Positions 29,966 through 56,843 of a stretch of DNA of 64,000 nt are shown in pieces (positions within the stretch are counted from its first letter, which is position 1; each line of letters starts with the position of its first letter). The translations under genes were made by a program, and so were the position numbers. The notes under the pieces are model-generated. The model was not told the DNA's origin. It searched no databases and saw nothing but the letters and a program-made list of their open reading frames with translations. Source of the DNA: Clostridiales bacterium (GTDB taxonomy: Bacteria; Bacillota; DSM-16504; Desulfitibacterales; JAICDB01). Location: the NCBI GenBank assembly GCA_020063565.1, contig JAICDB010000008.1:39914-103913 (forward strand), in the 5' to 3' direction.

Positions 29966-29992
29966 TAAAATATGTCGGAGCAGGTAAAATGT
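29966..29992 (-). promoter_or_regulatory. sigmaK-type promoter candidate (AC-N16-CATATTTTA)
   Basis: The reverse complement reads aagaACattttacctgctccgaCATATTTTA. The -10 element lies about 43 nt upstream of the FG-GAP start. Confidence 0.45.
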
Positions 29993-29994
29993 TC

Positions 29995-31554
29995 TTACTT
30001 AACCCATGGTACCAGGTTCGGCCTGGGGTCAAGAATTGATTGATACTGCTCTTTTATACCATAAATACTGTTCGGATCAAGTTTCTTGTAGCGGTAATAC
30101 TTTTTTAAACGGTCTGCAGGTTTCATCCAGCCAAGGTGCTTAATTCTTAAGTCGCTGTTTACGCCTTTTAGTTCAGTTATATTTTTGGGAAAACGCCCGC
30201 AGTGCTGGGGAGTTTCCCTCCAGAGATAGTTAAAATCGGGAACGTACCTGACCATGAAGGGACGGTACCACTTATGGGCATTCCAGTATGCATCCTCACG
30301 GTAATAATTTTCATCCCACATATCGTATAAACGGAAGGAATAATAGTAGATGTCAGGACGTTCTGCCAGTGATTTTAAAAGGTGCCGCGCCCTGTCTTCG
30401 AAAATTTCATCAGCATCTAAAATCAAGATCCAGTCAGGTTGAGTTTCTACTGTCATTTCCCAGAGCTGCTTTCTGAGTACTATTTCGTTGTTAAAGGACG
30501 GCTCTTTATTGGAGATTAGGGTCAGGGGAATACCTTTCAAAAGTTCCTTGCAAACTTCCACAGTATTATCCTCGCTGGCATCGTCCAGAATAACGGCATG
30601 ATCTATATATTGCAGAGCATGTTTGAGAACCATTTCCAGATACCTGTCAGCTTCATTTCTTACCAGCATGGATAGGGTAATTCTACTTCCTTTTTCCCTC
30701 TTTCCGTGCCCTGCAGGCTGATTTTCAATATTTCGACTATTCTTGTTAGCGGTCTCAACTGAAAAAATTTTTTCCTTGTATGCTTTAAGTTCTGACAGTT
30801 CAGACTCCCGGTAGATGTGAAATGGGGGATAATGGGTATCTGCAAAAAGCTCCAGTCCCAGTGCAGCGGCCCGAACGCAAAAGTGGCGGTCTTCACCTGC
30901 AAGGCTCAGATTATATATTTCACTAAAGGACACCCCCATGGAAAGCGCCTTTCTGCTTATCAAGGTACAGGCTCCCAAACCGCCTACCTTGTAGGTACCA
31001 GGTTTAGATAACATTTCCAAAAACTTATCTGCTCTCTTACGCTGTTCTTCTTGGTTTAAGGTTTCACCCCTCTTTGCATGATACAATTTGTAATCGTCGG
31101 AAATCCATACCTGCGGAAGCGGGAGCATACCCGGTATCCACCTGGTCCAGTAGACCTCCGAGACAATATCCTTACCAAGGGAGACTAGATGGGTAATTGT
31201 TTTGGGATGCAGGTACAGATCGGAATCTACCAGAAAAAGATAGTCATAACCTTCTTCAAGCGCCAGGGTGATAAAGCTGTTTTTAAATTCAGCTACCTTC
31301 CAAATTAGATCCTCGCGCCAGTAATGGGTGGACTCGTCACAAATATAACAGTCCTCTGATTTTGTCGGAAAAATATGGACATTTTCTTTACCCCGGGAAA
31401 AATTGGTGAGTAAATCATGGTCGTTATTATCGTCAATAAAAGCGAAATCCAGCACTAAATTAGTGGATTCCAACCTCTCAAGGGACTCCAAAAACTCCGC
31501 CAGAATTACTTCTTTCTGCCTGACGGGACTTGCTATAAGAACCCGTTTTTTCAT
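29995..31554 (-). CDS. two-domain glycosyltransferase (N-terminal GT-A-like + C-terminal GT2)
   Basis: 519 aa. The C-terminal half has ITLSMLVRNEADRYL...AVILDDASEDNT...ILILDADE. The N-terminal half has VLIASPVRQKE...FIDDNND...LFLVDSD. Confidence 0.8.
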   Translation of the reverse strand: MKKRVLIASPVRQKEVILAEFLESLERLESTNLVLDFAFIDDNNDHDLLTNFSRGKENVHIFPTKSEDCYICDESTHYWREDLIWKVAEFKNSFITLALEEGYDYLFLVDSDLYLHPKTITHLVSLGKDIVSEVYWTRWIPGMLPLPQVWISDDYKLYHAKRGETLNQEEQRKRADKFLEMLSKPGTYKVGGLGACTLISRKALSMGVSFSEIYNLSLAGEDRHFCVRAAALGLELFADTHYPPFHIYRESELSELKAYKEKIFSVETANKNSRNIENQPAGHGKREKGSRITLSMLVRNEADRYLEMVLKHALQYIDHAVILDDASEDNTVEVCKELLKGIPLTLISNKEPSFNNEIVLRKQLWEMTVETQPDWILILDADEIFEDRARHLLKSLAERPDIYYYSFRLYDMWDENYYREDAYWNAHKWYRPFMVRYVPDFNYLWRETPQHCGRFPKNITELKGVNSDLRIKHLGWMKPADRLKKYYRYKKLDPNSIYGIKEQYQSILDPRPNLVPWVK

Positions 31555-31602
31555 TACTATACTCCTCTCAACCAGGTTACCATAAAACTGCCCGTCGAAA
31601 AT

Positions 31603-33117
31603 TCACATAAGAAACGTCCCTGATGTGAATGCAAAAGGGCCGGGGGAGTACGATGGACAAAATTCTTTTATTAATAAAAGCAATGAATTTTCAACCAGGA
31701 TTTTTAAACGCTTTTTGACAGGAAAGAAACAAGAATCATACCCTTTTTCCATAAGCGCAGCAAATTTGTAAATCTCCTGTGCAGTTACAGAAAGGTATTC
31801 AAAAGATAAATATTTTTCCGATGAAAATTTTAGCAGGGAAATTGTCTCAGAATAGCTTGCACTTAACTGAAGCAAATTCTCACCCTGCTTATTGTCGGAA
31901 ATTACATCGTAGATGGACAGCAGCAGGATTATAAGAGCTAATGATATTTCGCCGGTGTTTACAAGTTCCCCTGAGATTTCTTTTTTTTTCTGTAGCGAAG
32001 TGAACCGGCTAAGTTTTTCAATTGATACAGAAAACTTGTCTCTTTGAATGAGGCCGATCAACTGCGTGAGAGGATATAGAAACCTGCTTGATTTCTTAAG
32101 GGCTCTTAAATAGGAGTTTTTAGCTTCAGTATAATTAGCGGATAAATTATATGCATCCCCTAGCAAGGAAAGTATTTTAAAATCCGGTAGGGCCTTGTTA
32201 CCTTCTTTTTCAAATGCACCATTTAAGTCTATAACTGCTTCCAAGTATTTTTTTGTGTTAAAGTTTCCTATGCCCTTTAATAAAAGCAGGTTAGGATTTT
32301 CAGGCAACATTTCCAGAGATTTGCTTGTGAAATCAATTAACCTTTCAATTCTGCCTAATTTCAATAAGCCCACTGCAATATTAAGAACAACATCCTCAAA
32401 ATAACCTTCAGTTCCATGCATACCACGAAGAGCCTTTTCTAGAGATTGAAGCCCTTCGGAAATCTTACCCTCCTGGTAATGCTCCACGGCAAGGCAATAT
32501 AAAAGGAAAGGGTTATTAGGATTGTTTTGTAATTCCTGATAAATAATTGTTTTATTGCGATTGAATTTATCCTTTTTCACAACCTGCGATTTCAAATAGC
32601 CATAATGCTCGATTACCAGGGGAGCTGTTTTCAAGCCACTTCCACCGTTCTCATTTAAAATTGCCGGCGCCACCTGCTCATGAATGGCTCCAGTAAATCT
32701 ATAGACCGGTTTGTTTCTAAAGAGTCTGACAACCCGGTCCCAGGTCACTTTTTGCCCTGTGCCCACATAGTTTTTAATATGCAGGTAATAACCTTCAACA
32801 TTGGTATCGGAGAGCAATTGCTTAAATTCTTCACTACCAACCGGAGCCAGAGTTTCGTCGGCATCAAGCACCATTATCCAGTCACAGTCAGCCTGTTCCA
32901 GGGCAAAATTTCTGGCCTCAGAAAAATCCCCCCTCCAGGTGAAATGAAACACCTTGGCTCCTGCTGCACCGGCAATGCTGGCTGTCTGATCGTGAGACCC
33001 CGTATCTACTACGATTATTTCATCTACAAGGTGCTTGACGCTGTTTATGCAGGATAAAATAAACTCTTCTTCATTTTTTACTATCAGGCACAGGCTTATA
33101 GTTTCCTTTTTAGCCAT
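31603..33117 (-). CDS. GT2 glycosyltransferase fused to TPR repeats
   Basis: ORF 31603..33129, with the likely ATG at 33117. It has ISLCLIVKNEEE...IIVVDTGSHDQT...IMVLDADE and a helical-repeat C-terminal half. It overlaps the upstream stop by 8 nt. Confidence 0.85.
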   Translation of the reverse strand: MAKKETISLCLIVKNEEEFILSCINSVKHLVDEIIVVDTGSHDQTASIAGAAGAKVFHFTWRGDFSEARNFALEQADCDWIMVLDADETLAPVGSEEFKQLLSDTNVEGYYLHIKNYVGTGQKVTWDRVVRLFRNKPVYRFTGAIHEQVAPAILNENGGSGLKTAPLVIEHYGYLKSQVVKKDKFNRNKTIIYQELQNNPNNPFLLYCLAVEHYQEGKISEGLQSLEKALRGMHGTEGYFEDVVLNIAVGLLKLGRIERLIDFTSKSLEMLPENPNLLLLKGIGNFNTKKYLEAVIDLNGAFEKEGNKALPDFKILSLLGDAYNLSANYTEAKNSYLRALKKSSRFLYPLTQLIGLIQRDKFSVSIEKLSRFTSLQKKKEISGELVNTGEISLALIILLLSIYDVISDNKQGENLLQLSASYSETISLLKFSSEKYLSFEYLSVTAQEIYKFAALMEKGYDSCFFPVKKRLKILVENSLLLLIKEFCPSYSPGPFAFTSGTFLM

Positions 33118-34867
33118 GAGTATTACCACCGATTTTGAATTTATAATTGAGAGAGCTCCTAACCCTACCCGCTTTATCCCGGTAAAATTCCAATAAGGTA
33201 AGATAACCCTGAGGTGACGTACTCTTAATAATAGATTTCAAATTAGCAGCTAATTGCAGAAGACGGGGATTTTGCCTTCCGTATTCGGGCAGATAGTAAT
33301 TGCATAAATTGAATATTTCCAAGGCAGGTGTTAGTAGTTCTTTTTCCCGTATTTTTTGGGGACAGTTTATGATCCCGTCCTTTTCCATCATGCGGGTTAA
33401 GTTTACCAATATCCACCCTTCGCACCTTGTCTCCTGGTTTCTCCATAATTTAAGCGCTAAAGATCTTCCTTCTGCAAAACGTTCCAGCAATAGGAGGGCA
33501 ATTGTTTGCAGAATTTGGGATTGGATATAAAACTTGCTTTCCACTGAAACCTGTTTCAGATGTTTTAAGCCCTGCTCTAACTTACCTGAAAAAATATTGT
33601 ATTGTCCCAAACAAAACCGCATTTCATCACAATTTTTTTTATCTGCTACTTCTTCCAGGGATAGACGGGCGAGACCCGGAAACCCGGAAGCAAAAAATAA
33701 ATTTGCAACCGGCAAAGCTAATTGGCTACTGCCCAGGTAGCCTTTCTCTTTTAAATATTTCAGCGTATGGCGGGCACCGCTTTTTGCCTTAAGTAGCAAA
33801 AAGAGATTGTAAATAGGAAAAGTATACTTGGGGTTAGCAGCCAGGGCTTGTTCATAATAATTTTGTGCTGCATTTGTTTGACCAAGCATTTCGTGACAGT
33901 ATCCCAGGTGGTAAAAGGCCAGAAAGCTTTCAGTTCCGTTCATGTGGCTGTAGAAAGGTGGTGGTGTTCCACACTTCACTGCCTGGTTAAACCACTTTAT
34001 GGCCAACTGTAACTCTTTCTTTTCCTCGAAAAGAATTCCACACAGGTAATAGATATCAGTATAGTCAGGATACTTCAGTTCTGCTTCCAGGCAGAGGCAA
34101 ATTGCTTCATCAAGTCTTCCTAAGGATTGCAGGCTAATAATCAAGTAACGTAAAGCCGGCGCCCGGAAGAAAAGGTTACTGTCGGTAATATTCCGATAGG
34201 CCTTCTCCAAGTACGGAAGCGCCTTACCGGGCTTTCCCAACATCAACCACTCGACCCCAAGGTAATATTCAAGAAAGTGGTTCTGGGGTTCCCTAGAGTA
34301 TGCTTTTTTCAGTAGAGATAGATTGCGCCCTCTTTTACGGTTGCGTTCCCCGGAAGGGAGCATTTTATGTTTTATAACAGGTCCAGCTGCCATCCTTAGC
34401 GCTTCTTTTTTAGTAATAACAATCTGTTCGTGAATTTTACCCTCAAATCTGTATTGCCCGTTATTTTTAAAGAGCCGAAGTACAAGAAAGCGGTTGTATT
34501 CACCGTTACCGTCAGCAGTAGGGTTATCAAGCGGTAGAAGATAGGCTTCCGTGCTTTTATCACGGGTTATAAGACCCTTTAAATCGCCGGTTTCGGCAGC
34601 TAATTCTTCATCAGCATCGAGGGACAAAATCCATTCACTACTTGCTTTCTCAATTGCAAAATTGCGAGCTGCACTGAAATCATCGTCCCAGGGGTACCGG
34701 TAAATCTTATTTGTAAACTTCCGGGCTATTTCCAGGGTACTATCTGTGGAACCGGTATCCACGATAACGATTTCGTCCACCTGGTGGCTTACACTGTCAA
34801 GGCAGGCCTGTAAATTTTCCTCTTCATTTTTTACGATCATTGCCAGAGTAATGGTACCTTCTTTCAT
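33110..34867 (-). CDS. GT2 glycosyltransferase fused to TPR repeats
   Basis: It has ITLAMIVKNEEENL...IVIVDTGSTDST...ILSLDADE followed by TPR-like repeats (YYLCGILFEEKKELQLAIKWFNQAV, YHLGYCHEMLGQTNAAQNYYEQALAANP). An ATGA overlap joins it to the upstream gene. Confidence 0.85.
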   Translation of the reverse strand: MKEGTITLAMIVKNEEENLQACLDSVSHQVDEIVIVDTGSTDSTLEIARKFTNKIYRYPWDDDFSAARNFAIEKASSEWILSLDADEELAAETGDLKGLITRDKSTEAYLLPLDNPTADGNGEYNRFLVLRLFKNNGQYRFEGKIHEQIVITKKEALRMAAGPVIKHKMLPSGERNRKRGRNLSLLKKAYSREPQNHFLEYYLGVEWLMLGKPGKALPYLEKAYRNITDSNLFFRAPALRYLIISLQSLGRLDEAICLCLEAELKYPDYTDIYYLCGILFEEKKELQLAIKWFNQAVKCGTPPPFYSHMNGTESFLAFYHLGYCHEMLGQTNAAQNYYEQALAANPKYTFPIYNLFLLLKAKSGARHTLKYLKEKGYLGSSQLALPVANLFFASGFPGLARLSLEEVADKKNCDEMRFCLGQYNIFSGKLEQGLKHLKQVSVESKFYIQSQILQTIALLLLERFAEGRSLALKLWRNQETRCEGWILVNLTRMMEKDGIINCPQKIREKELLTPALEIFNLCNYYLPEYGRQNPRLLQLAANLKSIIKSTSPQGYLTLLEFYRDKAGRVRSSLNYKFKIGGNTHG

Positions 34868-36834
34868 GTTACCGGTTCCTCCTCCGATAACTTCATGAAA
34901 ACCTTCATATCGGGGTATTTTTGCATGGCTTCCTGTAAAATTTTTTTGCGCTTGTTATCGTATAAGTTGATTAGCCTGATATAATAACGTGGTACATTGC
35001 TATTTATTTCCAATGCCCGCCGGTAATTTTGTTCTGCTTGATAATAATTATCTGTTTCTTGATAAATTTCAGCCAGGAGATAATATGTTTCAGCATCAGC
35101 GGTAGCAGTTAAATATTCTTTTAACAACTCTTTTGTTTTTTCCTTATAACCGTAGTCATAAAAGAGCTGAGCAATGTTTAGCTTGTGTTCAGTCAAACTT
35201 TCGGGATTGACCATGTTCAAGAGGCGCTCTACCTTATCTGTTTCATCCATATCAAGCAATCTTTTTACTATATCAAGCAGAAGATCCATTCCATCATTCC
35301 CGAGGGTTACGGCTGAAACACCTTTCTTATCCAGCACATCTACAAGAAGCTTTAATACTTTTTCCGTATCCTCCGCCAGGCCAAAGGAACAGAACTCTCC
35401 AAAAAGAGCACGTACTCTCTTCTTATTATCCTGGAGCCAAAAGCAAAACAACTGGTTAAACTTTGCAAGAGGGTAGAGATAGCTCTCAGAAGTGAACTCC
35501 TCAATAATTCTCAGCGCTTCCAGGTATCTTCGTTCTTGAATCAGACAAATGATTTTTCGCAGTTTAATTTCGGGGGAAGCAGTTTTATTTTTTGTGCCTT
35601 TTTCAAGATATTCCAGAGCAAGCTTATAGGCTCCCTGCCGAAAGAAGATATCACCCATAATTAGGTTGGCCCTGGCAGTACAAAATTCAAATACCTTTTC
35701 CAGGCATTCAACTGTATATTCAGGGTTTTCACGGGGATTAAGGATACGTACTATATTTTCCAGGGCAGGTGTAAATTCCGGGTTGTCACGCAAACTTGCC
35801 ATGTAGTACCTAATGGCATCTTCATACTTTAAAAAAGTTTCTGCTATTTGTCCCAGGTAGTAGAACGATCTAAATCCCCTTACACCGGCAAAAGAAGCAT
35901 ACTGGGCGGGTTGTTCCGGCATTGAAACCGCCTTTTGAAAAGAGTCGCTGGCATTGGCGTACTGCCTCAATTCTAAATAAAGCAACCCTGCATAGTAATA
36001 AAGGTCTGCATAATTGGGAAAGTGTTGTAGGCCAAGCTGGACAATAGCGAGCGCCCTATCCGGCTGCCCTGCGGACTGGTGAGACATGACAATATACCTT
36101 AAAAGTTTTGGAAGGTAAATAGTATTGGGGTCTATACCGTTTGCCGCTCGAGTCAATTCCCTGGCTGCCTCTGCATATCTTTCGGCACGGAAAAGCTCAA
36201 CGCCGTAATGATACCTTAATAACTTGTTTTCCGGTTTTTGTGCAAGTTCCCTTTCAATTATTTTCAGGTTTCTTTCTTTTTTATTTTTTTCATTTATTTG
36301 CCTGTCTAGATAACCATAATGGACGACTACTATCTCTTCAGCTATTTTATAAGCGGCAGTGTTGTTCTTTTCCAGAATAACATCAGCTATTTGCTCGTGA
36401 ATAGCCCCGCGAAATCTATAATCACGCCTGTTTCTAAAAAGACGAAAGATTAAATCGGGACAGGTTTCAATCCATCCTTCGTTGCCAATATAGTTGATGA
36501 CCTTGATAAAATAACCTTCTACACTATCGTCAGTCACCAGACTTCGCAGCGCTTCCTTACTTTCTTTTGCCAGTTCTTCGTCGGCATCCAGAAACAAGAT
36601 CCAATCTCCGGTAGCAAGCTCCAAGGAAGCGTTCCGAGCATCACTAAAATTTTCATTCCAGCAAAAAGACTGGATTTTTGCTCCAAATTCACGGGCTATT
36701 TGACAGGTATTGTCAGAAGAACCTGTATCAACAACAATTATTTCATCCACCACATCGGCTACGCTACTCAGACATCTGCGGATGTTTTGCTCTTCATCCT
36801 TGATAATCATACATAAACTGATTGAGGTATCCAT
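34864..36834 (-). CDS. GT2 glycosyltransferase fused to TPR repeats
   Basis: It has ISLCMIIKDEEQNI...IIVVDTGSSDNT...ILFLDADE followed by about 400 aa of TPR-like repeats (YYLLAEIYQETDNYYQAEQNYRRALEINS). Confidence 0.85.
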   Translation of the reverse strand: MDTSISLCMIIKDEEQNIRRCLSSVADVVDEIIVVDTGSSDNTCQIAREFGAKIQSFCWNENFSDARNASLELATGDWILFLDADEELAKESKEALRSLVTDDSVEGYFIKVINYIGNEGWIETCPDLIFRLFRNRRDYRFRGAIHEQIADVILEKNNTAAYKIAEEIVVVHYGYLDRQINEKNKKERNLKIIERELAQKPENKLLRYHYGVELFRAERYAEAARELTRAANGIDPNTIYLPKLLRYIVMSHQSAGQPDRALAIVQLGLQHFPNYADLYYYAGLLYLELRQYANASDSFQKAVSMPEQPAQYASFAGVRGFRSFYYLGQIAETFLKYEDAIRYYMASLRDNPEFTPALENIVRILNPRENPEYTVECLEKVFEFCTARANLIMGDIFFRQGAYKLALEYLEKGTKNKTASPEIKLRKIICLIQERRYLEALRIIEEFTSESYLYPLAKFNQLFCFWLQDNKKRVRALFGEFCSFGLAEDTEKVLKLLVDVLDKKGVSAVTLGNDGMDLLLDIVKRLLDMDETDKVERLLNMVNPESLTEHKLNIAQLFYDYGYKEKTKELLKEYLTATADAETYYLLAEIYQETDNYYQAEQNYRRALEINSNVPRYYIRLINLYDNKRKKILQEAMQKYPDMKVFMKLSEEEPVT

Positions 36835-37001
36835 AAAGATTATGCTGCTCCTTATAACTAGTTAATGTTTCTCCTATAATTCACTATATGTAGAGATTTA
36901 AAAAAATTTAAAGAAAATGTAAAAAAACCAGAACTTTCCACCTGTATGTGAAATACTATATTACTAAATAAAACAAAGTTTAAGTAAAGGGGGGAATCTT
37001 A

Positions 37002-37826
37002 ATGCCAAACTTTAAGATTTTCCAGGATACTCCCGACCAGGCGAAGGTAAAAATCTATGGTAGCAATGATGTTGCATTTAACACTGACTCATCCGGTAAC
37101 CTGACAATTACCTCAACCGGCCTGGCAATTACAGCGCCTGCCAATGGTCTAAGCATCACCAGCACCGGGTTGGCAATAACAGCGCCAGCCAACGGGTTGA
37201 CAGTTACAGCGCCAGCATCCGGCCTATCCATTACTCCACCAAGCGGTGGACTATCTATAACACCGCCAACTAGTGGTCTGACTATTACCAGCACCGGGCT
37301 ATCAGTAACGGCGCCGGCCAACGGATTAACGGTTACAGCGCCGGCATCCGGCCTATCCATTACTCCGCCAAGCGGAGGATTGTCTATTACGCCACCGACT
37401 AACGGTTTAAGCATTACCAGCACAGGCCTTGCAATTACGGCGCCAACAAATGGGCTCACTGTAACTGCATCTTCTGATGGTTTGAAAGTTGCAACGGCCA
37501 CTACTGATGTCTCGGCCACCAGGGCTAACGTTACTGACACTGCAGGTACTCCCGATACAACTTACAACGTACTGGGTTATAAGACCTGGACCTTCGGTGT
37601 TGTAAATGCTTCAACTGCAACAGATGCCCAGGCGCTTGTCAAACTTCAAATCAGCCCTGACGGTACCAACTGGCAGGACGAAGTAAGTTCGGTAACAATT
37701 AACCAGAATTCTTTAGCAACATTTGTGTCTTCGATATTCTTAAAATATGCCAGAATTTACTACAGTGCTGTTAACGCAAGTAGTGCAGTAACTTTGAACA
37801 TCTTCTTCCAGGGGCAATCTGACTAA
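37002..37826 (+). CDS. Thr/Ser-rich repeat protein: short N-terminus, 15 x (7- or 9-residue xxxGLx[IV]) repeats, beta-rich C-terminal domain
   Basis: 274-aa ORF with the strong RBS AAAGGGGGG and no signal peptide. The repeats alternate TSTGL[AS][IV] and T[AP]PxxGL[ST][IV]. The C-terminal ~110 aa are non-repetitive. A terminator lies at 37877-37906. Confidence 0.8.
   Translation: MPNFKIFQDTPDQAKVKIYGSNDVAFNTDSSGNLTITSTGLAITAPANGLSITSTGLAITAPANGLTVTAPASGLSITPPSGGLSITPPTSGLTITSTGLSVTAPANGLTVTAPASGLSITPPSGGLSITPPTNGLSITSTGLAITAPTNGLTVTASSDGLKVATATTDVSATRANVTDTAGTPDTTYNVLGYKTWTFGVVNASTATDAQALVKLQISPDGTNWQDEVSSVTINQNSLATFVSSIFLKYARIYYSAVNASSAVTLNIFFQGQSD
37083..37490 (+). repeat. coding tandem repeat array (21/27-nt units; higher-order 129-nt unit at 37158-37286 and 37287-37415)
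   Basis: The two 129-nt (43-codon) blocks encode TSTGL..TAPANGLTVTAPASGLSITPPSGGLSITPPT.GL.I and differ mostly at synonymous or near-synonymous positions. Confidence 0.9.
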
Positions 37827-39552: not shown

Positions 39553-39576
39553 TATAAATTTTTATAAAAATAATCA

Positions 39577-46465: not shown

Positions 46466-47431
46466 ATGAAGATCTTGATTACTGGAATTACAGGATTTGC
46501 TGGGAGCCACCTTGCCGAGTATGCTTTAACTAAGCCGGGAGTGGAAGTGTTTGGTACTGTCAGGGTAAGAAGTAAGTTGGACAATATTGAACACCTCTTA
46601 GATAAGATTAATCTGGTTGAATGTAATTTGCTGGACCCTTTTGCAGTTCGAAAAATAATAGAAACTATTAAACCGGACAGGATTTTTCATTTGGCAGCAC
46701 AAAGCTTTGTTCCTACTTCCTGGAATGCACCCGAGGAGACATTGGAGAACAATATCCTCAGTGAACTAAATATTTTTGAAGCTGTTAGATTAAATAATAT
46801 TCCCACAAGGATTCAGATTGCATGCTCGTCTGAGGAATACGGAATGGTTTATCCTGAGGAAACACCTATTAATGAAGAGAATCCATTGCGTCCTTTAAGC
46901 CCCTACGGTGTCAGCAAGGTCGCACAGGACCTTCTGGGATATCAATATCATGCATCATATCAGCTTCATATTGTTAGAACAAGAGCTTTCAATCATACGG
47001 GACCACGCCGTGGGGAAATGTTTGTAACATCTAATTTTTGCAAGCAGGTAGCTGAAATTGAAAAAGGACTAAGAGAACCGGTAATAAAAGTAGGTAACCT
47101 TGAAGCTCAAAGGGATTTTACCGATGTCAGGGATACAGTGAGAGGGTATTGGCTGGCACTTGAATCCGGTATTCCGGGTGAAGTTTATAATATTGCTTCC
47201 GGCATAGCAATTAAAATTAAAAAGTTGTTAGATATAATTCTTTCTTTATCTAACCGGAAGATTTCAGTAGAAGTAGATGAAACAAGATTACGCCCTTCTG
47301 ATGTTCCCATTCTTCTGGGTGATTATTCAAAGTTTAATAAACAGACAGATTGGAAACCGGAAATTCCGTTTGAAAAAACAATTAGGGATTTATTAAATTA
47401 TTGGAGGGAAAAGGTTTCCTCAAGACACTAG
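46466..47431 (+). CDS. GDP-mannose 4,6-dehydratase / GDP-4-keto-6-deoxy-D-mannose reductase family SDR (Gmd/Rmd-type)
   Basis: It has ITGITGFAGSHL, SPYGVSK (YxxxK) and VGNLEAQRDFTDVRD in 321 aa, directly after manC. Confidence 0.75.
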   Translation: MKILITGITGFAGSHLAEYALTKPGVEVFGTVRVRSKLDNIEHLLDKINLVECNLLDPFAVRKIIETIKPDRIFHLAAQSFVPTSWNAPEETLENNILSELNIFEAVRLNNIPTRIQIACSSEEYGMVYPEETPINEENPLRPLSPYGVSKVAQDLLGYQYHASYQLHIVRTRAFNHTGPRRGEMFVTSNFCKQVAEIEKGLREPVIKVGNLEAQRDFTDVRDTVRGYWLALESGIPGEVYNIASGIAIKIKKLLDIILSLSNRKISVEVDETRLRPSDVPILLGDYSKFNKQTDWKPEIPFEKTIRDLLNYWREKVSSRH

Positions 47432-47454
47432 TACTAGCCAAGTTGAGGGATATT

Positions 47455-48564: not shown

Positions 48565-48566
48565 GT

Positions 48567-49616
48567 ATGAAAGTATGTTTCTACTACTCCTTTCGTGACC
48601 AAAAGGATTGGAATGATTCCGATTTGGAAAAAGAGGGGCTACCCGGTTCCGAAACTGCAATTGTTCATATCTCCAGAGAAATGGCAAAGAGACATCAAGT
48701 TACAGTTTATAATAAAACCTCGCGGGAAGGAATTTATCATGGCGTCAGGTACAGGAACCTGCAAAATTTTGATTATAGAAATCATTGGGATGTAATAATG
48801 GTTGTACGAGGGCAACCTCCAAAGCTGCAATATGTACCTGCCAAACTTAAATTATACTGGTCAATCGAAGAGGGAAGTTATTTAGTTAAAGACTGGAGTA
48901 AGGTGCTTCCGCATGTGAAAAAAGTTATTACCATAAGTCCCTTCCATACAGATGAACTTATAAGAAATACGGAAGTTCCCAGGGAAAAAATATTTCAGAC
49001 AAGACTTGGTGTTAATGAAAGCGAATATCAAGATACCTTCCCTAAAGTTAATAACAAACTGATATATTGTTCCGTACCCAGAAAGGGATTGGATAACCTC
49101 GCTAAAATATTTCCATTAGTTAAAAGGGAAGTTCCCGATGCCAGTCTTGTAATTACAAGTGACTATACTCTGTGGGGGAGAAAACCGCAAACTGACGAAT
49201 ATCTAAAAACTTTTTCCAAGATACCTTCTGTCTCTTTTTTAGGGAGGATAAATCGAAAAAGGCTTATTTACGAGCAGAAGACCAGCCAACTTCATGTCTA
49301 TCCTTGTGTTTTTGAAGAACTGTTTTGTCTTTCTGCTATGGAATGCCAGGCTGCAGGAACCCCGTGCGTCTGTTCGGATATTGGAGCGCTGTCTACGACA
49401 GTAAAGGATGGAGTGACAGGTAAGCTGGTGAAGATGGAAAACGGTAAGGTACCTGTTGAAGAATTTGCGCAGGAGATAATTAATCTGTTAAAAAATCCGG
49501 TTCAATTAGCGAAAATGTCGAAGGCTGCCAGGGAGAGAGCTTTGCAAAAATATACTTATCAAAAGATTGTGAGGGAATGGGAGGAGAGTTTTAAGTGTTG
49601 GCTTCAGGGGAAATAG
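48567..49616 (+). CDS. GT4-family glycosyltransferase
   Basis: It has EELFCLSAMECQAAGTPCVCSDIGALSTTVKDGVTG. Confidence 0.8.
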   Translation: MKVCFYYSFRDQKDWNDSDLEKEGLPGSETAIVHISREMAKRHQVTVYNKTSREGIYHGVRYRNLQNFDYRNHWDVIMVVRGQPPKLQYVPAKLKLYWSIEEGSYLVKDWSKVLPHVKKVITISPFHTDELIRNTEVPREKIFQTRLGVNESEYQDTFPKVNNKLIYCSVPRKGLDNLAKIFPLVKREVPDASLVITSDYTLWGRKPQTDEYLKTFSKIPSVSFLGRINRKRLIYEQKTSQLHVYPCVFEELFCLSAMECQAAGTPCVCSDIGALSTTVKDGVTGKLVKMENGKVPVEEFAQEIINLLKNPVQLAKMSKAARERALQKYTYQKIVREWEESFKCWLQGK

Positions 49617-49726
49617 TAGAAACACTTATTTCCCCAAATAGGGTGAGTGGTTACTCAATTTTTTTTTAAAAGATAACATGATATTGAGTTATTTCAAGTC
49701 AATAAATTATTAATAGGTGGTATATA

Positions 49727-51031
49727 ATGAATATTACACTTATTGGTGTTGGGTATGTGGGGTTAGTGACAGGTTTAGTTTTTAGTGAAAAAACTCATCA
49801 AGTAAATTTCATAGATATAGATACTAAGAAAATTGAGCTATTAAAGGATGCAAAGGTTCCCTTCTATGAACCTCAAATAGAAGGTTTATTAATAAAGAAT
49901 TTTGATTTGCTTACTTTTCATACTAGCTTATCCCAGGAAATAAGTAGCATTACAGATATTTATTTTGTTTGTGTAGGAACTCCACGTACTAAAGAAGGTC
50001 AATTAGATACAAAATTTGTTATGACTGCTTGTCGGGAGATAGTTATGAAAACCGAAGTTCCGGTTCCGATTGTGATAAAGAGTACTGTACCTGTTGGAAC
50101 ATGTAAAAGGGTTTGGAATTTAGTTAATGGATTGAAAGACGAAGTAAAAGAGAACTGGCCGATACTATTTAATCCCGAGTTCTTACGAGAAGGAAATGCA
50201 GTGTATGATAGTTTTTATCCAGAACGGATAGTTATAGGTACTGAGAACAAAGAGGATAAGTCTACCTATATAATTAAAGAACTTTATCGTGACTGGCAAG
50301 CGCCGCTAATTATCTGTGACCTAGAATCTGCTGAGTTAATTAAGCTTGCATCCAACGGTTTTTTGGCCACTAAGATATCTTATATTAATGAACTTGCTAA
50401 ATTATCAGAAGTAATTGGAGTGGATATTAAAAAGGTAACAGAAGGAATGGGACTTGATAGCCGTATAGGAAAAAAATTTTTACAGGCAGGAGTAGGTTAT
50501 GGAGGTTCCTGTTTCCCAAAGGATGTGGAATCATTAATTACTACTGGAAAAAACGTGGGGCAATCCTTAACTATCCTGGAGGCTGTTCAGGAAGTCAATT
50601 ATGAACAGAGAAATTGGTTTATCAATAAGATTAAAAATATATTGGATGGGGTAACAAACAAAACCATTGGAATTTTAGGACTTTCATTTAAACCTAATAC
50701 AGATGACTTAAGATATGCACCTTCATTGACCGTTATCCCCGAACTTTTAAAAAAAGGAGCCAAAATAAAGGTTTATGATCCTAAGGCAATGGGGAACATT
50801 AGAGATTACTTCACTGGAGTTATTTGCTGCTCCAATAGTTATGAAGTTGCTAAAGATAGCGATTGTATTGTTATACTTACTGAATGGGAGGAATTTAAAA
50901 ATTTGTCCTTAGAAAAATTAAAAACTTGTTTGAAAAGACCTATTATTATTGATGGAAGAAATGTTTTTGAACCAGCCAGAATGAAGGAGTATGGTTTTAT
51001 TTATGAAGGAGTAGGAAGAAGAAATGTATAG
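49727..51031 (+). CDS. ugd: UDP-glucose 6-dehydrogenase
   Basis: It has ITLIGVGYVGLV, a catalytic GGSCFPKD and 434 aa. Confidence 0.9.
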   Translation: MNITLIGVGYVGLVTGLVFSEKTHQVNFIDIDTKKIELLKDAKVPFYEPQIEGLLIKNFDLLTFHTSLSQEISSITDIYFVCVGTPRTKEGQLDTKFVMTACREIVMKTEVPVPIVIKSTVPVGTCKRVWNLVNGLKDEVKENWPILFNPEFLREGNAVYDSFYPERIVIGTENKEDKSTYIIKELYRDWQAPLIICDLESAELIKLASNGFLATKISYINELAKLSEVIGVDIKKVTEGMGLDSRIGKKFLQAGVGYGGSCFPKDVESLITTGKNVGQSLTILEAVQEVNYEQRNWFINKIKNILDGVTNKTIGILGLSFKPNTDDLRYAPSLTVIPELLKKGAKIKVYDPKAMGNIRDYFTGVICCSNSYEVAKDSDCIVILTEWEEFKNLSLEKLKTCLKRPIIIDGRNVFEPARMKEYGFIYEGVGRRNV

Positions 51032-51057
51032 AGAAGCTTTTTGTAAATAATGGACAG

Positions 51058-52194
51058 CTAGTGCTGTCCATTAAATATTTTTTCATAAACTTGTAGAGTT
51101 TTTTTACCTGTATCCTGCCAGCTAAATTGGGTAACCCGCTTTAAACCTTCGTAAATAAGACTTACCCTTAAGCTTTTATTAGTCAAAACCCTAGTTATTT
51201 CGTGTGCTACTAACTGTGGTGTTTGTGGATTAACAAGTATACCCGCATTACCTACCAATTCAGGTAAGCTTGAAGTATTCGCAGCTATAACAGGTGTGCC
51301 GCAGCTCATAGCTTCTAAAACCGGTAATCCAAAGCCTTCATATAAAGATAATAGTATGAATAAGCTAGCGTGATTGTAAAGACTAATTAAATCTTCTAAA
51401 GGAACATAATTTGTAAGTTTCAAGTTGTCAAATACACCTAAATGTTTAGCTAATTCTTTGAGCTCCTCTTCTTCCTTTTGGCTTAATCTACAGACAATGA
51501 CAAGGTCATGGGAGGCTTTTATTTCTTTATCTAAAAAACTAAAAGATTTTATTATTCCAGGTAAATTTTTATGGAAAACAGCACTTCCCGTGCAGCTTAA
51601 AATGTAATTGTTTTTAATATGATATTTATCCTTAATATATTGAGGATTTTTCTTTTTTCTTCTAAAAATGTTAGCCCCTCCACCATAAACAACATGTATT
51701 TTTTTTTCAGGAACGTTTAAAAAATTAATCACATCCTGCTTAGTTTTTTCTGAAATGGCAATAATTCCGTCTGCCTGTTTAATAAAGTTTAATCTTTCCC
51801 AATATCTTTTTTTTTGGGAAGCATTCCCTAAAAATATCTTTTCATAAACTAATGGAATTAAGTCATATACAGTAACTATTAGTTTACAGGGAATTGATTC
51901 TCTATTATAGATACTATCAAATTCAAAGGGACTGGTAACATGAAAAATATCGAGACTGTGCAAAGCAAACATTAAATTTTCAGCATCTAAGTATTCCACA
52001 TTTTCCTGGTTAAATAAAGCAGGATACCCCTGTTCTTGAAAGAAGGTAGAACCATGTTTTCTGACTACTAAATAGTATTTGTTTTGACGATCTATCTGAA
52101 AAAGATTGGTCAACTGATTTCTAACAAAATTACCAATTCCCCGATTTCGTGAACCCTCAGAATAGAGAGGTTCAAGATCTATACCAATTCGCAT
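51058..52194 (-). CDS. GT4-family glycosyltransferase
   Basis: It has SLYEGFGLPVLEAMSCGTPVIAANTSSLPELVG. Confidence 0.85.
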   Translation of the reverse strand: MRIGIDLEPLYSEGSRNRGIGNFVRNQLTNLFQIDRQNKYYLVVRKHGSTFFQEQGYPALFNQENVEYLDAENLMFALHSLDIFHVTSPFEFDSIYNRESIPCKLIVTVYDLIPLVYEKIFLGNASQKKRYWERLNFIKQADGIIAISEKTKQDVINFLNVPEKKIHVVYGGGANIFRRKKKNPQYIKDKYHIKNNYILSCTGSAVFHKNLPGIIKSFSFLDKEIKASHDLVIVCRLSQKEEEELKELAKHLGVFDNLKLTNYVPLEDLISLYNHASLFILLSLYEGFGLPVLEAMSCGTPVIAANTSSLPELVGNAGILVNPQTPQLVAHEITRVLTNKSLRVSLIYEGLKRVTQFSWQDTGKKTLQVYEKIFNGQH

Positions 52195-52341
52195 CTCTAA
52201 ATCACTCCGTTCTTAATTATTTAGCAAAAATTCAAGCGCCTTATTTTATCATATGAATTCTAAGGCTATTTGTTTAGTATCAGATAGAAAAATAAAATCA
52301 TATGATATTATGACAGAGCTATATTATGGAGGGGATATTTA

Positions 52342-53106
52342 ATGGAAAATTTATCAATAGTAATTGTGGCACAAAACGAAGAAAAATGTATCGAAAAGTG
52401 TCTTCAGAGCGTAACTTGGGCAGGGGAAATTATCTTTATTGATGCTTACAGTACAGATAACACACTTAGTATTGCTAAGAAGTATACGGACAAAGTATTT
52501 CAAAAAGAGTGGCCGGGTGATTCCTATACACAAAAGAGTTATGGCATCAGCAAAGCAACAAGGGAATGGGTGATGATTGTTGATGCGGACGAGATCATTC
52601 CCCCAGAATTAGTAAGTGAAATTAAACAGATAATATTCAATCCCGGCGACTGTGTTGGCTATTGGATTCCACGAAAAAATCACTTTTATGGTAAATGGAT
52701 TAAACATAGTGGCTGGTATCCGGATTATCAATTACGGTTATTCAAGAGAACATACGGTAGATATGGAAATAAAAAGGTGCATTCCGTTCTTGATGTTGAT
52801 GGAAAAGTAGGTTATTTAAAAAATAATATTATTCACTACTCATATGAGGGAGGTATAACTCAGTTTATTAATAAACTAAATAGATATACTACTCTGGAAG
52901 CGATAGACTTAAATAGCAAAGGCTATAAGGCTAAATTTTCTGACTTTGTTTCCAAAGCATTGGAGGAGTTTAATAAGAGATACTTTACCTATGAAGGATA
53001 TAAAGATGGAATTCCTGGCTTCATCATTTGTAGTTTATACGCTATTGATCAATTTATAGCGTATGCAAAGCTATGGGAAAGACAGAATACCGGTGATTCA
53101 CAATGA
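52342..53106 (+). CDS. GT2-family glycosyltransferase
   Basis: It has LSIVIVAQNEEKCI...IIFIDAYSTDNT...VMIVDADE. Confidence 0.85.
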   Translation: MENLSIVIVAQNEEKCIEKCLQSVTWAGEIIFIDAYSTDNTLSIAKKYTDKVFQKEWPGDSYTQKSYGISKATREWVMIVDADEIIPPELVSEIKQIIFNPGDCVGYWIPRKNHFYGKWIKHSGWYPDYQLRLFKRTYGRYGNKKVHSVLDVDGKVGYLKNNIIHYSYEGGITQFINKLNRYTTLEAIDLNSKGYKAKFSDFVSKALEEFNKRYFTYEGYKDGIPGFIICSLYAIDQFIAYAKLWERQNTGDSQ

Positions 53107-54251
53107 CAATTAACGTCTTAATGTTGGAGGCTACCGGGACAGGGGGTATCTGCCACTATACCTACAACCTGTGCCGAGAGTTAATCGAAAAACAGATTGC
53201 TGTCCACTTGGCTACTAATAGAAGAAATTATGAACTGGAAAACAGGAAAAATATTTCTTTTCCATTTTATAAAGTACTTGATAGAGAACGTTATCTAAAT
53301 CCCGAAGGACTACCCTGTGATGAACTGTATCTGGAAGTGATTCAGTTAGCTAAAAAAATTAGACCTAGCATTGTTCATTTTCAATGGCCGCTTTGTCCAA
53401 AGTTTGACCCGTATTTCCTCAATCATCTAAGAAGAGAAATAAGCTGTAAGTATGTTTACACAGCCCATAACCTCTTACCCCATAACCAAACAGAAAAAGA
53501 CTGCGAAATATTTGGTACTCTTTATCAAAATATAGATGCTATTATAGTTCATGGTAATAATTTAGTAACTAACTTTCAAAAAATTTTTAATTTCTTCCCT
53601 AAGAGACTTATATCAATTCCACTTGGAAATTATAATTTTTTAGTACCTAAAACTTTCACTGACCTAAAAGAGGCAAGAAAACTATTAGGGTTACCCACTG
53701 ATAAAATAATACTATTATTTTTTGGCTATATCAGTGATTATAAGGGCTTAGAGTATTTGCTTCAAAGTTTACCATTAGTTAAACAGAAAAGTTCTGATTT
53801 TTGTTTGGTTATTGCTGGTGCTTGTCCGGATTTTTCCAAATATGCCTTACTTATTGAAGAGTTGGGTATAAAATGTCAGATAAAAACTTTTATCGGTTAT
53901 CAACCCTTCGAAAAGGTTCCTCTATTTTTTCAGGGGGCAGATATTGTTGTGCTTCCATATAAAGAGACTTACCAAAGTGCAGTAGTACAGGTTGCCTATG
54001 CATTTGGTAAGCCTGTTATTGCTACAAATGTAGGAGCTTTGCCTGAAGTTATTGTAGAAGGAAAAAGCGGCTTCCTTGTGCCACCTTGCAATTCTCAGGC
54101 ACTGGCAGATAAAATTCTTTATCTTATTAAGGATTACAAAACATGTAGGGATATGGGGGCTTATAGCAAAAATTTAGCCCATACTCATTTCTCCTGGAAG
54201 AAAGTTTCAGAGAAAACTATACAGTTATATCAAGAACTCCTTAAAAATTGA
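53103..54251 (+). CDS. GT4-family glycosyltransferase
   Basis: It overlaps the upstream stop (ATGA-type coupling). It has YQSAVVQVAYAFGKPVIATNVGALPEVIVEGKSG. Confidence 0.85.
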   Translation: MTINVLMLEATGTGGICHYTYNLCRELIEKQIAVHLATNRRNYELENRKNISFPFYKVLDRERYLNPEGLPCDELYLEVIQLAKKIRPSIVHFQWPLCPKFDPYFLNHLRREISCKYVYTAHNLLPHNQTEKDCEIFGTLYQNIDAIIVHGNNLVTNFQKIFNFFPKRLISIPLGNYNFLVPKTFTDLKEARKLLGLPTDKIILLFFGYISDYKGLEYLLQSLPLVKQKSSDFCLVIAGACPDFSKYALLIEELGIKCQIKTFIGYQPFEKVPLFFQGADIVVLPYKETYQSAVVQVAYAFGKPVIATNVGALPEVIVEGKSGFLVPPCNSQALADKILYLIKDYKTCRDMGAYSKNLAHTHFSWKKVSEKTIQLYQELLKN

Positions 54252-54276
54252 GAAAACTGCCTTAAAGGCAGTTTTC
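54252..54276. terminator. bidirectional terminator
   Basis: 10-bp stem GAAAACTGCC / GGCAGTTTTC between convergent genes. Confidence 0.65.
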
Positions 54277-54406
54277 TTAATATATTGGTAAATACTAAAT
54301 TTTTGCCCAATACTTTTTTCATAAAATCTTTTACCCAAGGTTCAGTTAAATCTTTGGCATCTGCCAGTTTGTTATACATTTAAAAACACCCCTTTATGAT
54401 GTTTTA

Positions 54407-55521
54407 TTAGATGCGAAAATAACACTCCAGAATTTTTTTTGCTGTTTTTTTCCAATTAAATTTTCGACTGTTTTTAAATCCTCTGGATATCAGATCTTTA
54501 CAATAATTTTCATCTTCAAGTACTCTTAACATTGCATCTACAATGTTATCAGTATTTTGAGGATCACAAAGCTCAGCGCTATTTCCCAAAACTTCCGGTA
54601 AAGATGAAGTATTGGATGATACAACAGGTGTACCGCATTTTTGTGCCTCAAGGGGGGGGGGAGCCCGAACCCTTCATATAAGCTTGGATAAACAAAAAGG
54701 CTGGCCCCTTTATAAAGTAGAGGTAAATGTTGCTCAGGGACATAATCTGTAAAAATTACCATGTCATTTATTCCTAGTGCTTCAGTTCTTTTTAACACCT
54801 CTTTATAGGTAAAACACTTATTGCCTACAAGCACCAACTGATATTTTTTAGTAGTTTTTTTTAGTAGTTGAGCATACGCATTTACCAATCCGAAGATGTT
54901 TTTTCGTTGGATAAAGCCTCCTATATTTAAAATATAATCTTCATTAATTCCATAATGTGCCTTCATCTCTTTCACTTTAACCAGAGGATAATTGGGATGG
55001 TATATATCATTAATGCCTGGATAAACTATCTTGACCTTATTTTTTTCAAGGTTGGGAAAATAGTGGTAAATATCTTTTGAAGAATTTATTGAGTCGGTGA
55101 TAATTAAATTACTGTTACTAATGACTTCTGGTAATATTTTTGTTATATTTTGCAGATAATGTTCTGGTACAGTTGCTGGGAGTCGGTAAGAAATAAGGTC
55201 GTGAATAGTTACCATTAGCTTACATACTTTCGTTTCGGGGAAAAAGAGACCGTTATTTGGGTCGTGATATATGGAAATCGACTTCCTTAGTAAGAACTGT
55301 ACCAGTGATTTCCTACGCCACTCCTCTGTATTTTGTGCCTGGAGGACAACTATTGTGAAGTTGCCAGGGAGCTGCCATTTATAGGGTAGGGGCTTATCTG
55401 TTAAAATATAATAACTATTTTTATTATCAATTTTTGCTAAACTATTAAGCAAATAATAAACATATTGTCCAATCCCAGTGTGTAAATGAAAAAGCTGGCT
55501 ACCGTTAATGGCAATTTTCAA
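54407..55521 (-). pseudogene. GT4-family glycosyltransferase interrupted by a frameshift in a C10 (coding-strand) homopolymer
   Basis: ORFs 54538..55521 and 54407..54589 are the two halves. The first reads ...SLYEGFGLPPP, then goes out of frame. The expected continuation LEAQKCGTPVVSSNTSSLPEVLGNSAELCDP is in the other frame and joins the second ORF. Confidence 0.8.
54652..54661. repeat. G10/C10 homopolymer tract
   Basis: Ten consecutive G on the plus strand. A tract of 11 or 8 would restore a 371- or 370-codon GT4 ORF. Confidence 0.95.
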
Positions 55522-55523
55522 CT

Positions 55524-56702
55524 TTATCCCTCGCTATCTTTGCAGACTTGTGTAAAGATATCATAGTATTTCTTTTCTATTACCGGCCAATGATAATTAT
55601 TTGTTACATAATTAAATCCATTTAGAGCTAAGTTTCTATTCAGGCTTTGGCTTGTTAATAAACTAGTTAAAGCTTTGGCAAATTCTTGATAGTTGTGATA
55701 ACAAAAGCCTCCTTGAGAGCGTTGACAGTGACCAGCAGTTACCTTGTTTTTTCCGTTAACGATAACCGGAGTTTTACTTTGCCAGGCTTCAAAAATCGCC
55801 AGTGAAAAGCTTTCCAAAAGAGATGGTTGAATGTAGGTAACTGCATTTTGTAACAAGTGCTGTTTTTTTGGCTCATCAACATACCCTAAAAAAACTATAT
55901 CCTCTCTTTGAGGTAGTTCCATTTGTTTGTCTCCTATTATCACAAACTTAAGGTTTATTTCAGGTTTTTCTTTCTTGTATTTGATAAAAAAATCAATTAA
56001 TTCGTGACAGTTTTTTCCACGGCTAATCCTTCCCATATGCACAATATAAGGTTTGAGAGTAGAAAATTGAGGAAATTCTAAGTGGGAGATTGATGGTTCT
56101 AAGCCAACCCCCACTACGTGATGCCAAGGTTTTATAACCCCAAATCTTTTTAGAGCAAAGTCTTTTTCCTCAGGAGATAGAAAAATAATTGCATCAGGTC
56201 TTTGGAACTCTTCGTCAAAAATAGACATATAGATGGGTCGTTCGTCATGGGCTGTTGGAATCAGAATACTTTTCCCATTAATTAATTGCAGCCCAAAATA
56301 AGTGGTACAATATAAATAAGTGAAGAAAACATGTAAATCATATCTAGTGTTATTGGATTGCAAAAAATCAAAGAGACCGCTGGAATAAGGTCCTTGAGCC
56401 TTTAACCACTCCAGTTCTTCTTCTTTAGAATGGAGCTGATTCTTTAATAATAGATGATGTAACTGATGAAACTTTTTCCCACGAGGATAATCAACTTTAA
56501 ACCGGTGAATTAATATGCCATCTTTGAGCTTACTGCCTTCCGGGTAATGATTTTCCCACGTTACATAGTCCTTAGCACATGTAGTGATAATCTCTATCTG
56601 GAATTTGTTTTTTAGCCTTGTTGCTAATTGGCGGCATAAGCTCTCAGACCCACCAGCTATTTCCTTACCATACCTGTGAATAACAAATGCTACTTTTTCC
56701 AT
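55524..56702 (-). CDS. GT4-family glycosyltransferase
   Basis: 392 aa with PSLLESFSLAIFEAWQSKTPVIV. The stop of this gene lies 2 nt before the start of the frameshifted GT4. Confidence 0.85.
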   Translation of the reverse strand: MEKVAFVIHRYGKEIAGGSESLCRQLATRLKNKFQIEIITTCAKDYVTWENHYPEGSKLKDGILIHRFKVDYPRGKKFHQLHHLLLKNQLHSKEEELEWLKAQGPYSSGLFDFLQSNNTRYDLHVFFTYLYCTTYFGLQLINGKSILIPTAHDERPIYMSIFDEEFQRPDAIIFLSPEEKDFALKRFGVIKPWHHVVGVGLEPSISHLEFPQFSTLKPYIVHMGRISRGKNCHELIDFFIKYKKEKPEINLKFVIIGDKQMELPQREDIVFLGYVDEPKKQHLLQNAVTYIQPSLLESFSLAIFEAWQSKTPVIVNGKNKVTAGHCQRSQGGFCYHNYQEFAKALTSLLTSQSLNRNLALNGFNYVTNNYHWPVIEKKYYDIFTQVCKDSEG

Positions 56703-56816
56703 TTTTCACCCAGCTTTTTAATAATATTTTTTTAATTTTCAAACTAAAAACTACAGCATACAATTAAAGAATTCTCTATAAATCATGGATTTAATAGCCT
56801 ATGATACTTATATCAC

Positions 56817-56843
56817 TATAATATGTCTGTGAAGGAAAAAGGT
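56817..56843 (-). promoter_or_regulatory. sigmaK-type promoter candidate (AC-N16-CATATTATA)
   Basis: The reverse complement reads tttacACctttttccttcacagaCATATTATA. The -10 element lies 114 nt upstream of the ATG at 56702, which is a long leader. Confidence 0.4.

Follow-up and report, generated by a model that had tools for sequence, protein, structure and literature searches.

Candidate sigmaK-type promoters across a putative spore-surface glycosylation block in an uncultured Clostridia lineage

In Bacillus subtilis, the sps and yfnHGF polysaccharide operons are controlled by sigmaK (PMC517825). In Clostridioides difficile, the same factor controls bclA1-3, the GT2 gene CD3350, and glmS. The consensus elements of sigmaE and sigmaK are conserved between both species, with AC as the -35 element of sigmaK (PMC3789822), and Eichenberger et al. 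reasoned from the conserved DNA-recognition residues that endospore formers in general should share the consensus (PMC517825). Here, we analyze a 64,000-nucleotide (nt) stretch from a Clostridiales bacterium (contig JAICDB010000008.1, assembly GCA_020063565.1; the whole 64-kb stretch is referred to as the window), in which the pattern AC-N16/17-CATAnnnTA recurs upstream of genes within a glycosyltransferase-rich block. These motifs are present, oriented toward genes, strongly enriched, sequence-specific, and concentrated in loci that carry the spore module, and some of the sites are conserved in position. Sequence comparison makes it likely that they are late mother-cell sporulation promoters recognized by sigmaK RNA polymerase. 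The novelty lies in the lineage, an unstudied branch of the Clostridia, and the regulation itself is of the expected kind.

The motifs resemble the sigmaK promoters of B. subtilis and C. difficile in their two elements, their spacing, the [A/C]AC[A/C] context of the -35, and their placement 20-115 nt upstream of start codons, as well as in the genes that they precede (coat, exosporium, and polysaccharide genes, and yabG). They differ in belonging to a distant, uncultured Clostridia lineage known from its sequence alone, in a last -10 base that in this clade is A or G with equal enrichment, and in a conserved AATAnnnTA subclass. The block also recalls the B. subtilis spsA-L, yfnHGF/yfnED, and cge loci, where glycosyltransferase and sugar-nucleotide genes are clustered under several late mother-cell promoters, internal ones included. 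The likeness is one of arrangement, and the block differs in its three GT2-TPR genes, double GT2 gene, DUF6385 gene, FG-GAP gene, and GDP-mannose pathway. GerE modulates the sps, yfn, and cge loci in Bacillus and was reported absent from Clostridium (PMC517825). The bclA3-sgtA pair of C. difficile (CD3349-CD3350) and BclA of Bacillus anthracis offer a further parallel, with a repeat-rich candidate surface protein beside dedicated GT2 genes and sigmaK control. Unlike these systems, the DUF6385 protein lacks collagen-like GXX repeats, and its GT2 proteins carry TPR domains.

Enrichment and sequence specificity of the motif

A regex scan for AC-N16/17-CATAnnnTA on both strands of the window returned 11 full matches, compared with 4.3 +/- 2.1 in dinucleotide shuffles. 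Six are intergenic, oriented, and upstream of a gene, where 0.18 would be expected, and none of 2000 shuffles reached six. Five of these fall within the block (0.09 expected) and occupy five of its 17 upstream regions. The other five matches, four in coding sequence and one orphan, equal the shuffle expectation; the sequence-only reading, an earlier annotation that had proposed the sigmaK-type pattern, had anticipated such chance matches somewhere in the window. By its own standard, the proposal would fall if the motifs were no denser in these intergenic regions than in coding or shuffled DNA, and the density proved clearly higher. Control patterns of the same architecture were run on the real sequence (48 permuted and 400 composition-matched, 448 in all). 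The real pattern ranked first in both sets, with six hits against means of 0.40 and 0.28, and the runner-up, CA...CATA...TA, represents the same sites read one base over. Chance is thus effectively refuted as the origin of the whole set. Any single site could still be a chance match, especially those at 29966, 44894, 52247, and 56817.

The same motif class was followed in related loci from other Clostridia, 81 around homologs of a 207-amino-acid (207-aa) gene of the block and four around the double GT2 gene. Across 754 upstream regions, the pattern scored 44 hits, whereas permuted patterns averaged 5.4. A single-substitution profile over 503 non-redundant upstream regions resolved which bases matter. 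The strict pattern occurred 25 times where 1.9 were expected (13x) and its CATAnnnTG form 16 times against 1.2 (13x), while AC...AATAnnnTA reached 30 against 4.8 (6x). Replacing the -35 by CC or GC left 10 occurrences each against 1.6-1.8 (5-6x), and AA, AG, or AT left 4-10 against 2.9-5.7 (1.4-1.7x). At the -10, TATAnnnTA was enriched only 1.9x and GATA 3.2x. Enrichment was lost on substitution within ATA or of the T, and the C of the -35 matters more than the A. A logo built from 47 sites reads g-t-[A/C]-AC-[A/C] ... CATA-t-n-a-T-[A/G], with a spacing of 16 nt in 21 sites and 17 nt in 26, and a median of 33 nt to the start codon.

Background loci behaved differently. In 80 PMM-anchored loci of related Bacillota, 1.2% of upstream regions carried a site (2.7x shuffle), compared with 8.2% in spore-module loci (14x shuffle) and 5-6 of 17 in the window block. 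Spore-module loci hold the motif at seven times the density seen in the background loci from related genomes, and the motif therefore represents a real promoter class specific to spore-module loci. Only one of 77 PMM genes that are non-syntenic with the window carries it. A PMM scan of genome collections gave relatives that are at best about 54% identical and mostly non-syntenic, and it was retained as the background set only. Taken together, the [A/C]AC[A/C] flanks and the substitution profile point to a sigmaK-type element rather than a sigmaA or sigmaE one. At the level of the class, both the profile and the logo show the AC rather than ATA specificity at the -35 that separates it from sigmaE.

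Two orthologs of genes established as sigmaK-dependent or late mother-cell genes were available, yabG and yitD/comA, and both are preceded by the motif. Zhaonella yabG has AC-N17-CATATCATA 37 nt upstream of its ATG, and the YabG-like CD3569 is sigmaK-controlled in C. difficile (PMC3789822). The yitD/comA ortholog of the window carries a full match (11005-11031); in B. subtilis, the mother cell expresses the yitCD operon late (PMC517825). An asparagine synthetase gene that follows the module in Desulfofundulus is preceded by AC-N17-CATAATATG; asnO of B. subtilis is under sigmaE, sigmaK, and SpoIIID control (PMC517825). The sigmaK-type proposal thus draws support from the enrichment, the related loci, the substitution profile, and these positive controls.

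Sites in the window

All four full matches proposed earlier, at 29966, 39525, 44894, and 56817, were recovered at their coordinates and strand (Table 1). The distance of 30-115 nt claimed from the start codons also holds, measured from the -10, with the likely true ATGs, which for the FG-GAP (29913) and PMM (44847) genes lie downstream of the longest open reading frame (ORF) starts. The divergent region required a correction, as 52247-52255 (-), listed previously as a -10-only match, is part of a full match. Its plus-strand counterpart at 52299-52307 is present as described. The full match at 11005-11031 (+), outside the block, had been overlooked. Pfam bore out the gene labels for FG-GAP, PGM/PMM, the GT4 pair, and the three GT2-TPR proteins, and placed the 528-aa protein in no family. 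An [A/C]AC[A/C] context surrounds the -35 in five of the six oriented sites, that of 44894 being the poorest.

Table 1. Candidate promoter elements and gene content of the window
Feature	Position	Strand	Setting	Support
AC-N17-CATATTATA	39525..39552	-	30 nt upstream of 528-aa gene ATG	regex scan
AC-N16-CATATTTTA	29966..29992	-	aACa -35 context; 3 nt after double GT2 stop codon; ~52 nt upstream of FG-GAP ATG	regex scan
AC-N17-CATAGTTTA	44894..44921	-	cACt -35 context; ~46 nt upstream of PMM ATG	regex scan
AC-N16-CATATGATA	52247..52273	-	52 nt upstream of GT4 gene 51058..52194	regex scan
AC-N16-CATATTATA	56817..56843	-	114 nt upstream of GT4 pair, 55524..56702 and frameshifted 54538..55521	regex scan
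AC-N16-CATAACATA	11005..11031	+	91 nt upstream of phosphosulfolactate synthase (comA/yitD) gene, just after a terminator-like hairpin	regex scan
-10 only, CATATAGTG	36882..36890	-	47 nt upstream of GT2-TPR operon ATG; nearest AC 28 nt upstream of -10	
-10 only, CATATGATA	52299..52307	+	34 nt upstream of GT2 gene 52342..53106; -35 position reads TC or CA	
Variant AC-N16-CATATAATG	56873..56899	+	35 nt upstream of 113-aa ORF 56935..57276; back-to-back with the 56817 site	
Variant AC-N17-AATACTATA	36933..36960	+	41 nt upstream of DUF6385 gene	5/5 lineages (window, L164, L165, L166, L167)
Variant AC-N16-AATAGTATA	42599..42625	+	47 nt upstream of 207-aa Cys-rich gene	
Variant AC-N16-AATAGGATA	44960..44986	+	35 nt upstream of manC-gmd-GT4-GT4-ugd operon	
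Intrinsic-terminator hairpin, 16 pairs and T run	39578..39613	-	after CAP/YkwD-like gene	
GT2-TPR x3 (34864..36834, 33110..34867, 31603..33129), double GT2 (29995..31554), FG-GAP (28186..29922)	28186..36834	-		Pfam
DUF6385 protein, Ser/Thr/Pro-rich repeats	37002..37826	+	divergent from GT2-TPR operon	
Conserved core: 528-aa (-), CAP/YkwD-like (-), two small HMA-like ORFs (+), 332-aa (-), 207-aa Cys-rich (+), PMM (-)	37908..44847			
manC, GDP-mannose dehydratase family, GT4, GT4, UDP-glucose/GDP-mannose dehydrogenase (+); GT4 (-); GT2 and GT4 (+); GT4 pair (-)	45022..56702			

The site at 39525 is a strong candidate promoter. Upstream of the 528-aa gene, the elements follow in the order terminator, putative promoter, AGGAGGG ribosome-binding site, and ATG, and the terminator sets this gene apart as its own transcription unit. 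Among the homologs, nine of 12 lineages carry AC-N15-17-CATAnnnT[AG] at 14-39 nt from the start, compared with 0.16 expected and a maximum of two in 1000 shuffles. The homologs were obtained by BLAST within loci anchored on the 207-aa family; a search that used the first 247 aa of the protein as query found nothing.

Two other sites are plausible promoters. The match at 29966 may act as an internal promoter ahead of the FG-GAP gene, and sigmaK-type motifs occupy the corresponding place in Desulfotomaculum nigrificans and Desulfofundulus, ahead of other genes. The match at 44894 may serve the PMM gene, for which the dual sigmaK/sigmaA promoters of C. difficile glmS provide a precedent. The gene behind the 11005 site was identified as a phosphosulfolactate synthase through TIGR03849 (E = 1e-105).

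Several observations adjoin these sites. At the FG-GAP and 528-aa sites, the -35 region consists of the heptamer ACATTTT (29986-29992 and 39546-39552, both -), which recurs at 36914-36920 (-) upstream of the GT2-TPR operon, there 28 nt from the -10. A separate regulator site shared by the three upstream regions was considered for it. The orphan match, AC-N16-CATATTTTA at 22223-22249 (-), lies in the convergent spacer between 21634..22083 (+) and 22358..24064 (-) with no downstream ORF, and a hairpin resembling a bidirectional terminator is found about 70 nt beyond it (around 22125-22155). Either chance or a small-RNA promoter would account for this match. The second GT4 gene of the pair behind the 56817 site is frameshifted (54407-55521, -). 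ORF 54538..55521 ends in nonsense residues after ...EGFGLPPP, and the remainder of the GT4 domain, its C-terminal part, is encoded in another frame by ORF 54407..54589. The frameshift could reflect a pseudogene or a homopolymer assembly error.

Alternative readings of the sites

The alternative that survives best, though we regard it as unlikely, is that these mother-cell promoters are read by sigmaE early, or by sigmaE and then sigmaK, as at B. subtilis spsG and yfnED. The -10 elements of both factors are almost identical (PMC3789822), and the sps operon of B. subtilis contains an internal sigmaE promoter (PMC517825). Within the block, the GT2-TPR operon speaks for this alternative. The sequence-only reading had called its -10 at 36883-36890 (-) sigmaE-like. 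The element itself, CATATAGT, is present, and a CATAnnnT[AG] -10 is kept in five of five lineages at 28-47 nt from the ATG, with no conserved AC. A sigmaE assignment was considered and is no more than possible, as inspection of the five lineages revealed no conserved ATA-type -35 upstream of the operon. At the level of the class, enrichment requires C as the second -35 base, and the flanks read [A/C]AC[A/C] instead of the ATA of sigmaE.

It is distinctly improbable that ordinary sigmaA promoters make up part or all of the set, even though AC-N16-CA-TAnnnT-A is geometrically the same as xxxACx-N17-TAnnnT. Weak 9/12 sigma-70 matches overlap four sites (39555-39526, 44926-44897, 52276-52248, and 56848-56820), vegetative cells could also need PMM, and the orthologs of the 207-aa gene share GTAACA-N18-TAnnAT. 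Against this stand the requirement for CA directly before TAnnnT, the sevenfold higher density in spore-module loci, and the -35 elements, none of which is better than 4/6 except at 11005 (TTCACA). A sigma-70 consensus scan of the block gave matches at chance frequency (62 vs 51 and 54 vs 46) and was not discriminating.

Part of the block might depend on another sporulation-specific factor, or on sigmaK with an activator, although this seems very unlikely to us. The clearest cases are the DUF6385, manC, and 207-aa units, whose conserved AATAnnnTA -10 may mean that a different or additional factor acts on part of the block. This form is kept in five of five lineages at DUF6385, in three of three at manC (the same upstream architecture occurs in loci L083 and L025), and in most orthologs of the 207-aa gene, which share GTAACA...AATAnnATA; the latter could also be read as the sigmaA-like arrangement given above. 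It is enriched 4.6-14x in spore-module loci and only 1.6x in background loci, with counts that include non-independent orthologs. At DUF6385, the -35 AC sits inside a longer conserved GAACTTTCC element (36935-36943, + in the window; 3173-3181 in L164, 4694-4702 in L165, and 4666-4674 in L166, all -). The element reads TAACCTTCC in L166 and GAAACTTTAC in L167, and keeps a fixed distance from AATAnnnT[AG] in five lineages of different families. Nevertheless, the variant shares its geometry and the seven remaining positions with the sigmaK pattern, and the single C-to-A change may merely tune promoter strength. The AATA variant may hence be a weaker sigmaK form or dependent on another factor.

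Chance matches in AT-rich intergenic DNA, which the eight fixed positions and the five coding or orphan matches would allow, are a highly improbable account in view of the six oriented sites, the first rank among the control patterns, and the conservation across lineages.

Several points weigh against sigmaK control. Only eight positions of the pattern are fixed, and the -10 is common to sigmaE and sigmaK; the sigmaK assignment therefore rests on a dinucleotide. At the GT2-TPR operon, the AC -35 occurs only in L164 among the five lineages, and the three plus-strand units depart from the canonical C of the -10. The 29966 site is absent from the only FG-GAP ortholog context (L164, n=1). The 44894 site is not conserved in its single syntenic relative (L025, n=1), where only the -10 remains (CATATGTTA), and it overlaps a weak sigmaA-like TTGTCA-18-CATAGT. 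The GT4 sites at 52247 and 56817 are good matches in the window sequence alone. Gene calls in the related loci are crude (longest-ORF), and sigK is absent from the 64-kb window. Even so, we infer sigmaK as the factor, late sporulation as the time of expression, and the spore surface as the place where the products act, and we hold this reading to be probable.

Under sigmaK control, the holoenzyme would bind the AC -35 and the CATAnnnT[A/G] -10 in the mother cell after engulfment and would fire several short transcription units across the block together. Sugar-nucleotide supply, glycosyltransferases, and surface proteins would be co-expressed, which would confine synthesis of the glycan machinery and the surface proteins to the site and time of outer spore layer assembly.

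The block, its host, and the spore surface

The host of the window is an uncultured, low-GC, endospore-forming member of the Clostridia. Among sequenced organisms, its proteins come closest, with identities of about 55-78%, to those of Zhaonella, Pelotomaculum, Desulfotomaculum, and Desulfosporosinus. The PMM protein reaches 54% in Peptococcaceae-type metagenome-assembled genomes (MAGs). The 207-aa protein reaches 69% in a Logan metagenome contig, 68% in a Clostridia MAG, and 66% in Zhaonella formicivorans, and the double GT2 reaches 78% in Pelotomaculum, 74% in Desulfolucanica, 70% in Desulfotomaculum, and about 63% in Desulfosporosinus. The collections searched with these three proteins held no close genome, and an identical window protein was found only in Logan and ENA assemblies, with contigs of 92 kb and 0.2-1 Mb in the Logan runs SRR13298155 and SRR13298159. 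Spore-former markers in the window include the YyaC spore protease, an H-type small acid-soluble spore protein, the YkwD-like CAP protein, and the 207-aa coat-like protein. The acid-soluble protein, a further endospore marker, has 65 aa (19676-19873, -) and scores 62.9 bits against TIGR02861, above the cut-off.

The 28-57 kb block combines sugar-nucleotide supply enzymes, about a dozen glycosyltransferases, and several spore-former-specific proteins. Its Pfam glycan content comprises six GT2, seven GT4, PMM, ManC, a GDP-mannose dehydratase family protein, and a UDP-glucose/GDP-mannose dehydrogenase. Several block proteins, the 528-aa protein among them, belong to no family. Glycosyltransferase and sugar-nucleotide genes are clustered as expected of a spore-surface glycan locus, the neighbors are spore-specific, and the genes are confined to endospore formers, with all named homologs from spore-forming Clostridia. 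In Zhaonella, the module adjoins sipL, yabG, and a sleB-like gene. Gene content and neighborhood suggest that the block is probably a spore-surface glycosylation and coat locus. Its right-hand end is marked by a near-consensus sigmaA promoter at 57372-57399 (+), TTGCCA-16-TATAAT (11/12), just upstream of a 409-aa membrane protein gene (57405..58634).

Elsewhere in the window, the mnmE-mnmG-rsmG-parA-parB genes at its start place it near the replication origin. A 101-aa ORF between rsmG and parA (4594-4899, +) resembles by eye an N-terminal transposase fragment. A tRNA-Sec gene at 18913-19010 (+; Rfam 70.7 bits, ARAGORN anticodon TCA) directly follows selA (15463..16860) and selB (16861..18810).

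Two conserved units stand out within the block. The DUF6385 gene, divergent from the three GT2-TPR genes and the double GT2, is syntenic in a MAG, D. nigrificans, Desulfofundulus salinus, and Desulfosporosinus youngiae; the MAG also has FG-GAP downstream. The GT2-TPR/double GT2 string shows synteny in loci L164-L167 and L084. Compared with SunS peptide glycosyltransferases, the GT2-TPR proteins score 79-106 bits, below the cut-off of 350. AlphaFold modeling of the DUF6385 protein without an alignment gave an unusable pLDDT of 51.5, and a literature search on DUF6385 found no papers. PDB sequence searches with the DUF6385 and 207-aa proteins returned a sole, marginal hit to the AfpX13 tail-fibre repeat (E = 0.007).

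The second unit centers on the 207-aa protein (42673-43296, +), which has no Pfam domain. Its match to the morphogenetic coat family BMQ_0737 is distant and sub-threshold (39 bits, with a cut-off of 71), and in two UniRef entries it bears the name of a SipL-SPOCS or DUF3794 domain protein. The protein shows some 15 invariant cysteines, carries a VQLLVPSYGFCVPAPC motif at its C-terminus, and defines a family (loci L083-L163) that is conserved, with 55-69% identity, in Moorella, Alkaliphilus, Natronincola, Zhaonella, and Desulfitobacteriia. Its usual neighbors are a CAP/YkwD-like gene, a small HMA-like gene, and a homolog of the 528-aa gene.

More tentatively, these units may belong to an uncharacterized protein-glycosylation system of the spore surface across Desulfotomaculum-, Desulfosporosinus-, Pelotomaculum-, and Zhaonella-like Clostridia. 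A repeat-rich, Ser/Thr-rich DUF6385 fibre would be the substrate of the three SunS-like GT2-TPR proteins, and the DUF6385, manC, and 207-aa promoters would form a distinct AC-N16/17-AATAnnnT[AG] subclass. We hold this fuller proposal to be possible but doubtful as a whole. The AATA subclass, if true, would mean either that sigmaK is less strict in its specificity in these lineages or that a second factor or activator works late in the mother cell.

As regulation, control of spore-surface glycan genes late in the mother cell is ordinary and expected. The sigmaK consensus of Bacillus and C. difficile appears transferable to deeply branching, uncultured, anaerobic spore formers, and the transferred consensus can flag spore-surface gene islands from sequence. 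The module of DUF6385, three GT2-TPR genes, and the double GT2, together with its coat-like neighbors, probably decorates the spores of sulfate-reducing and syntrophic Clostridia, whose surface is uncharacterized.

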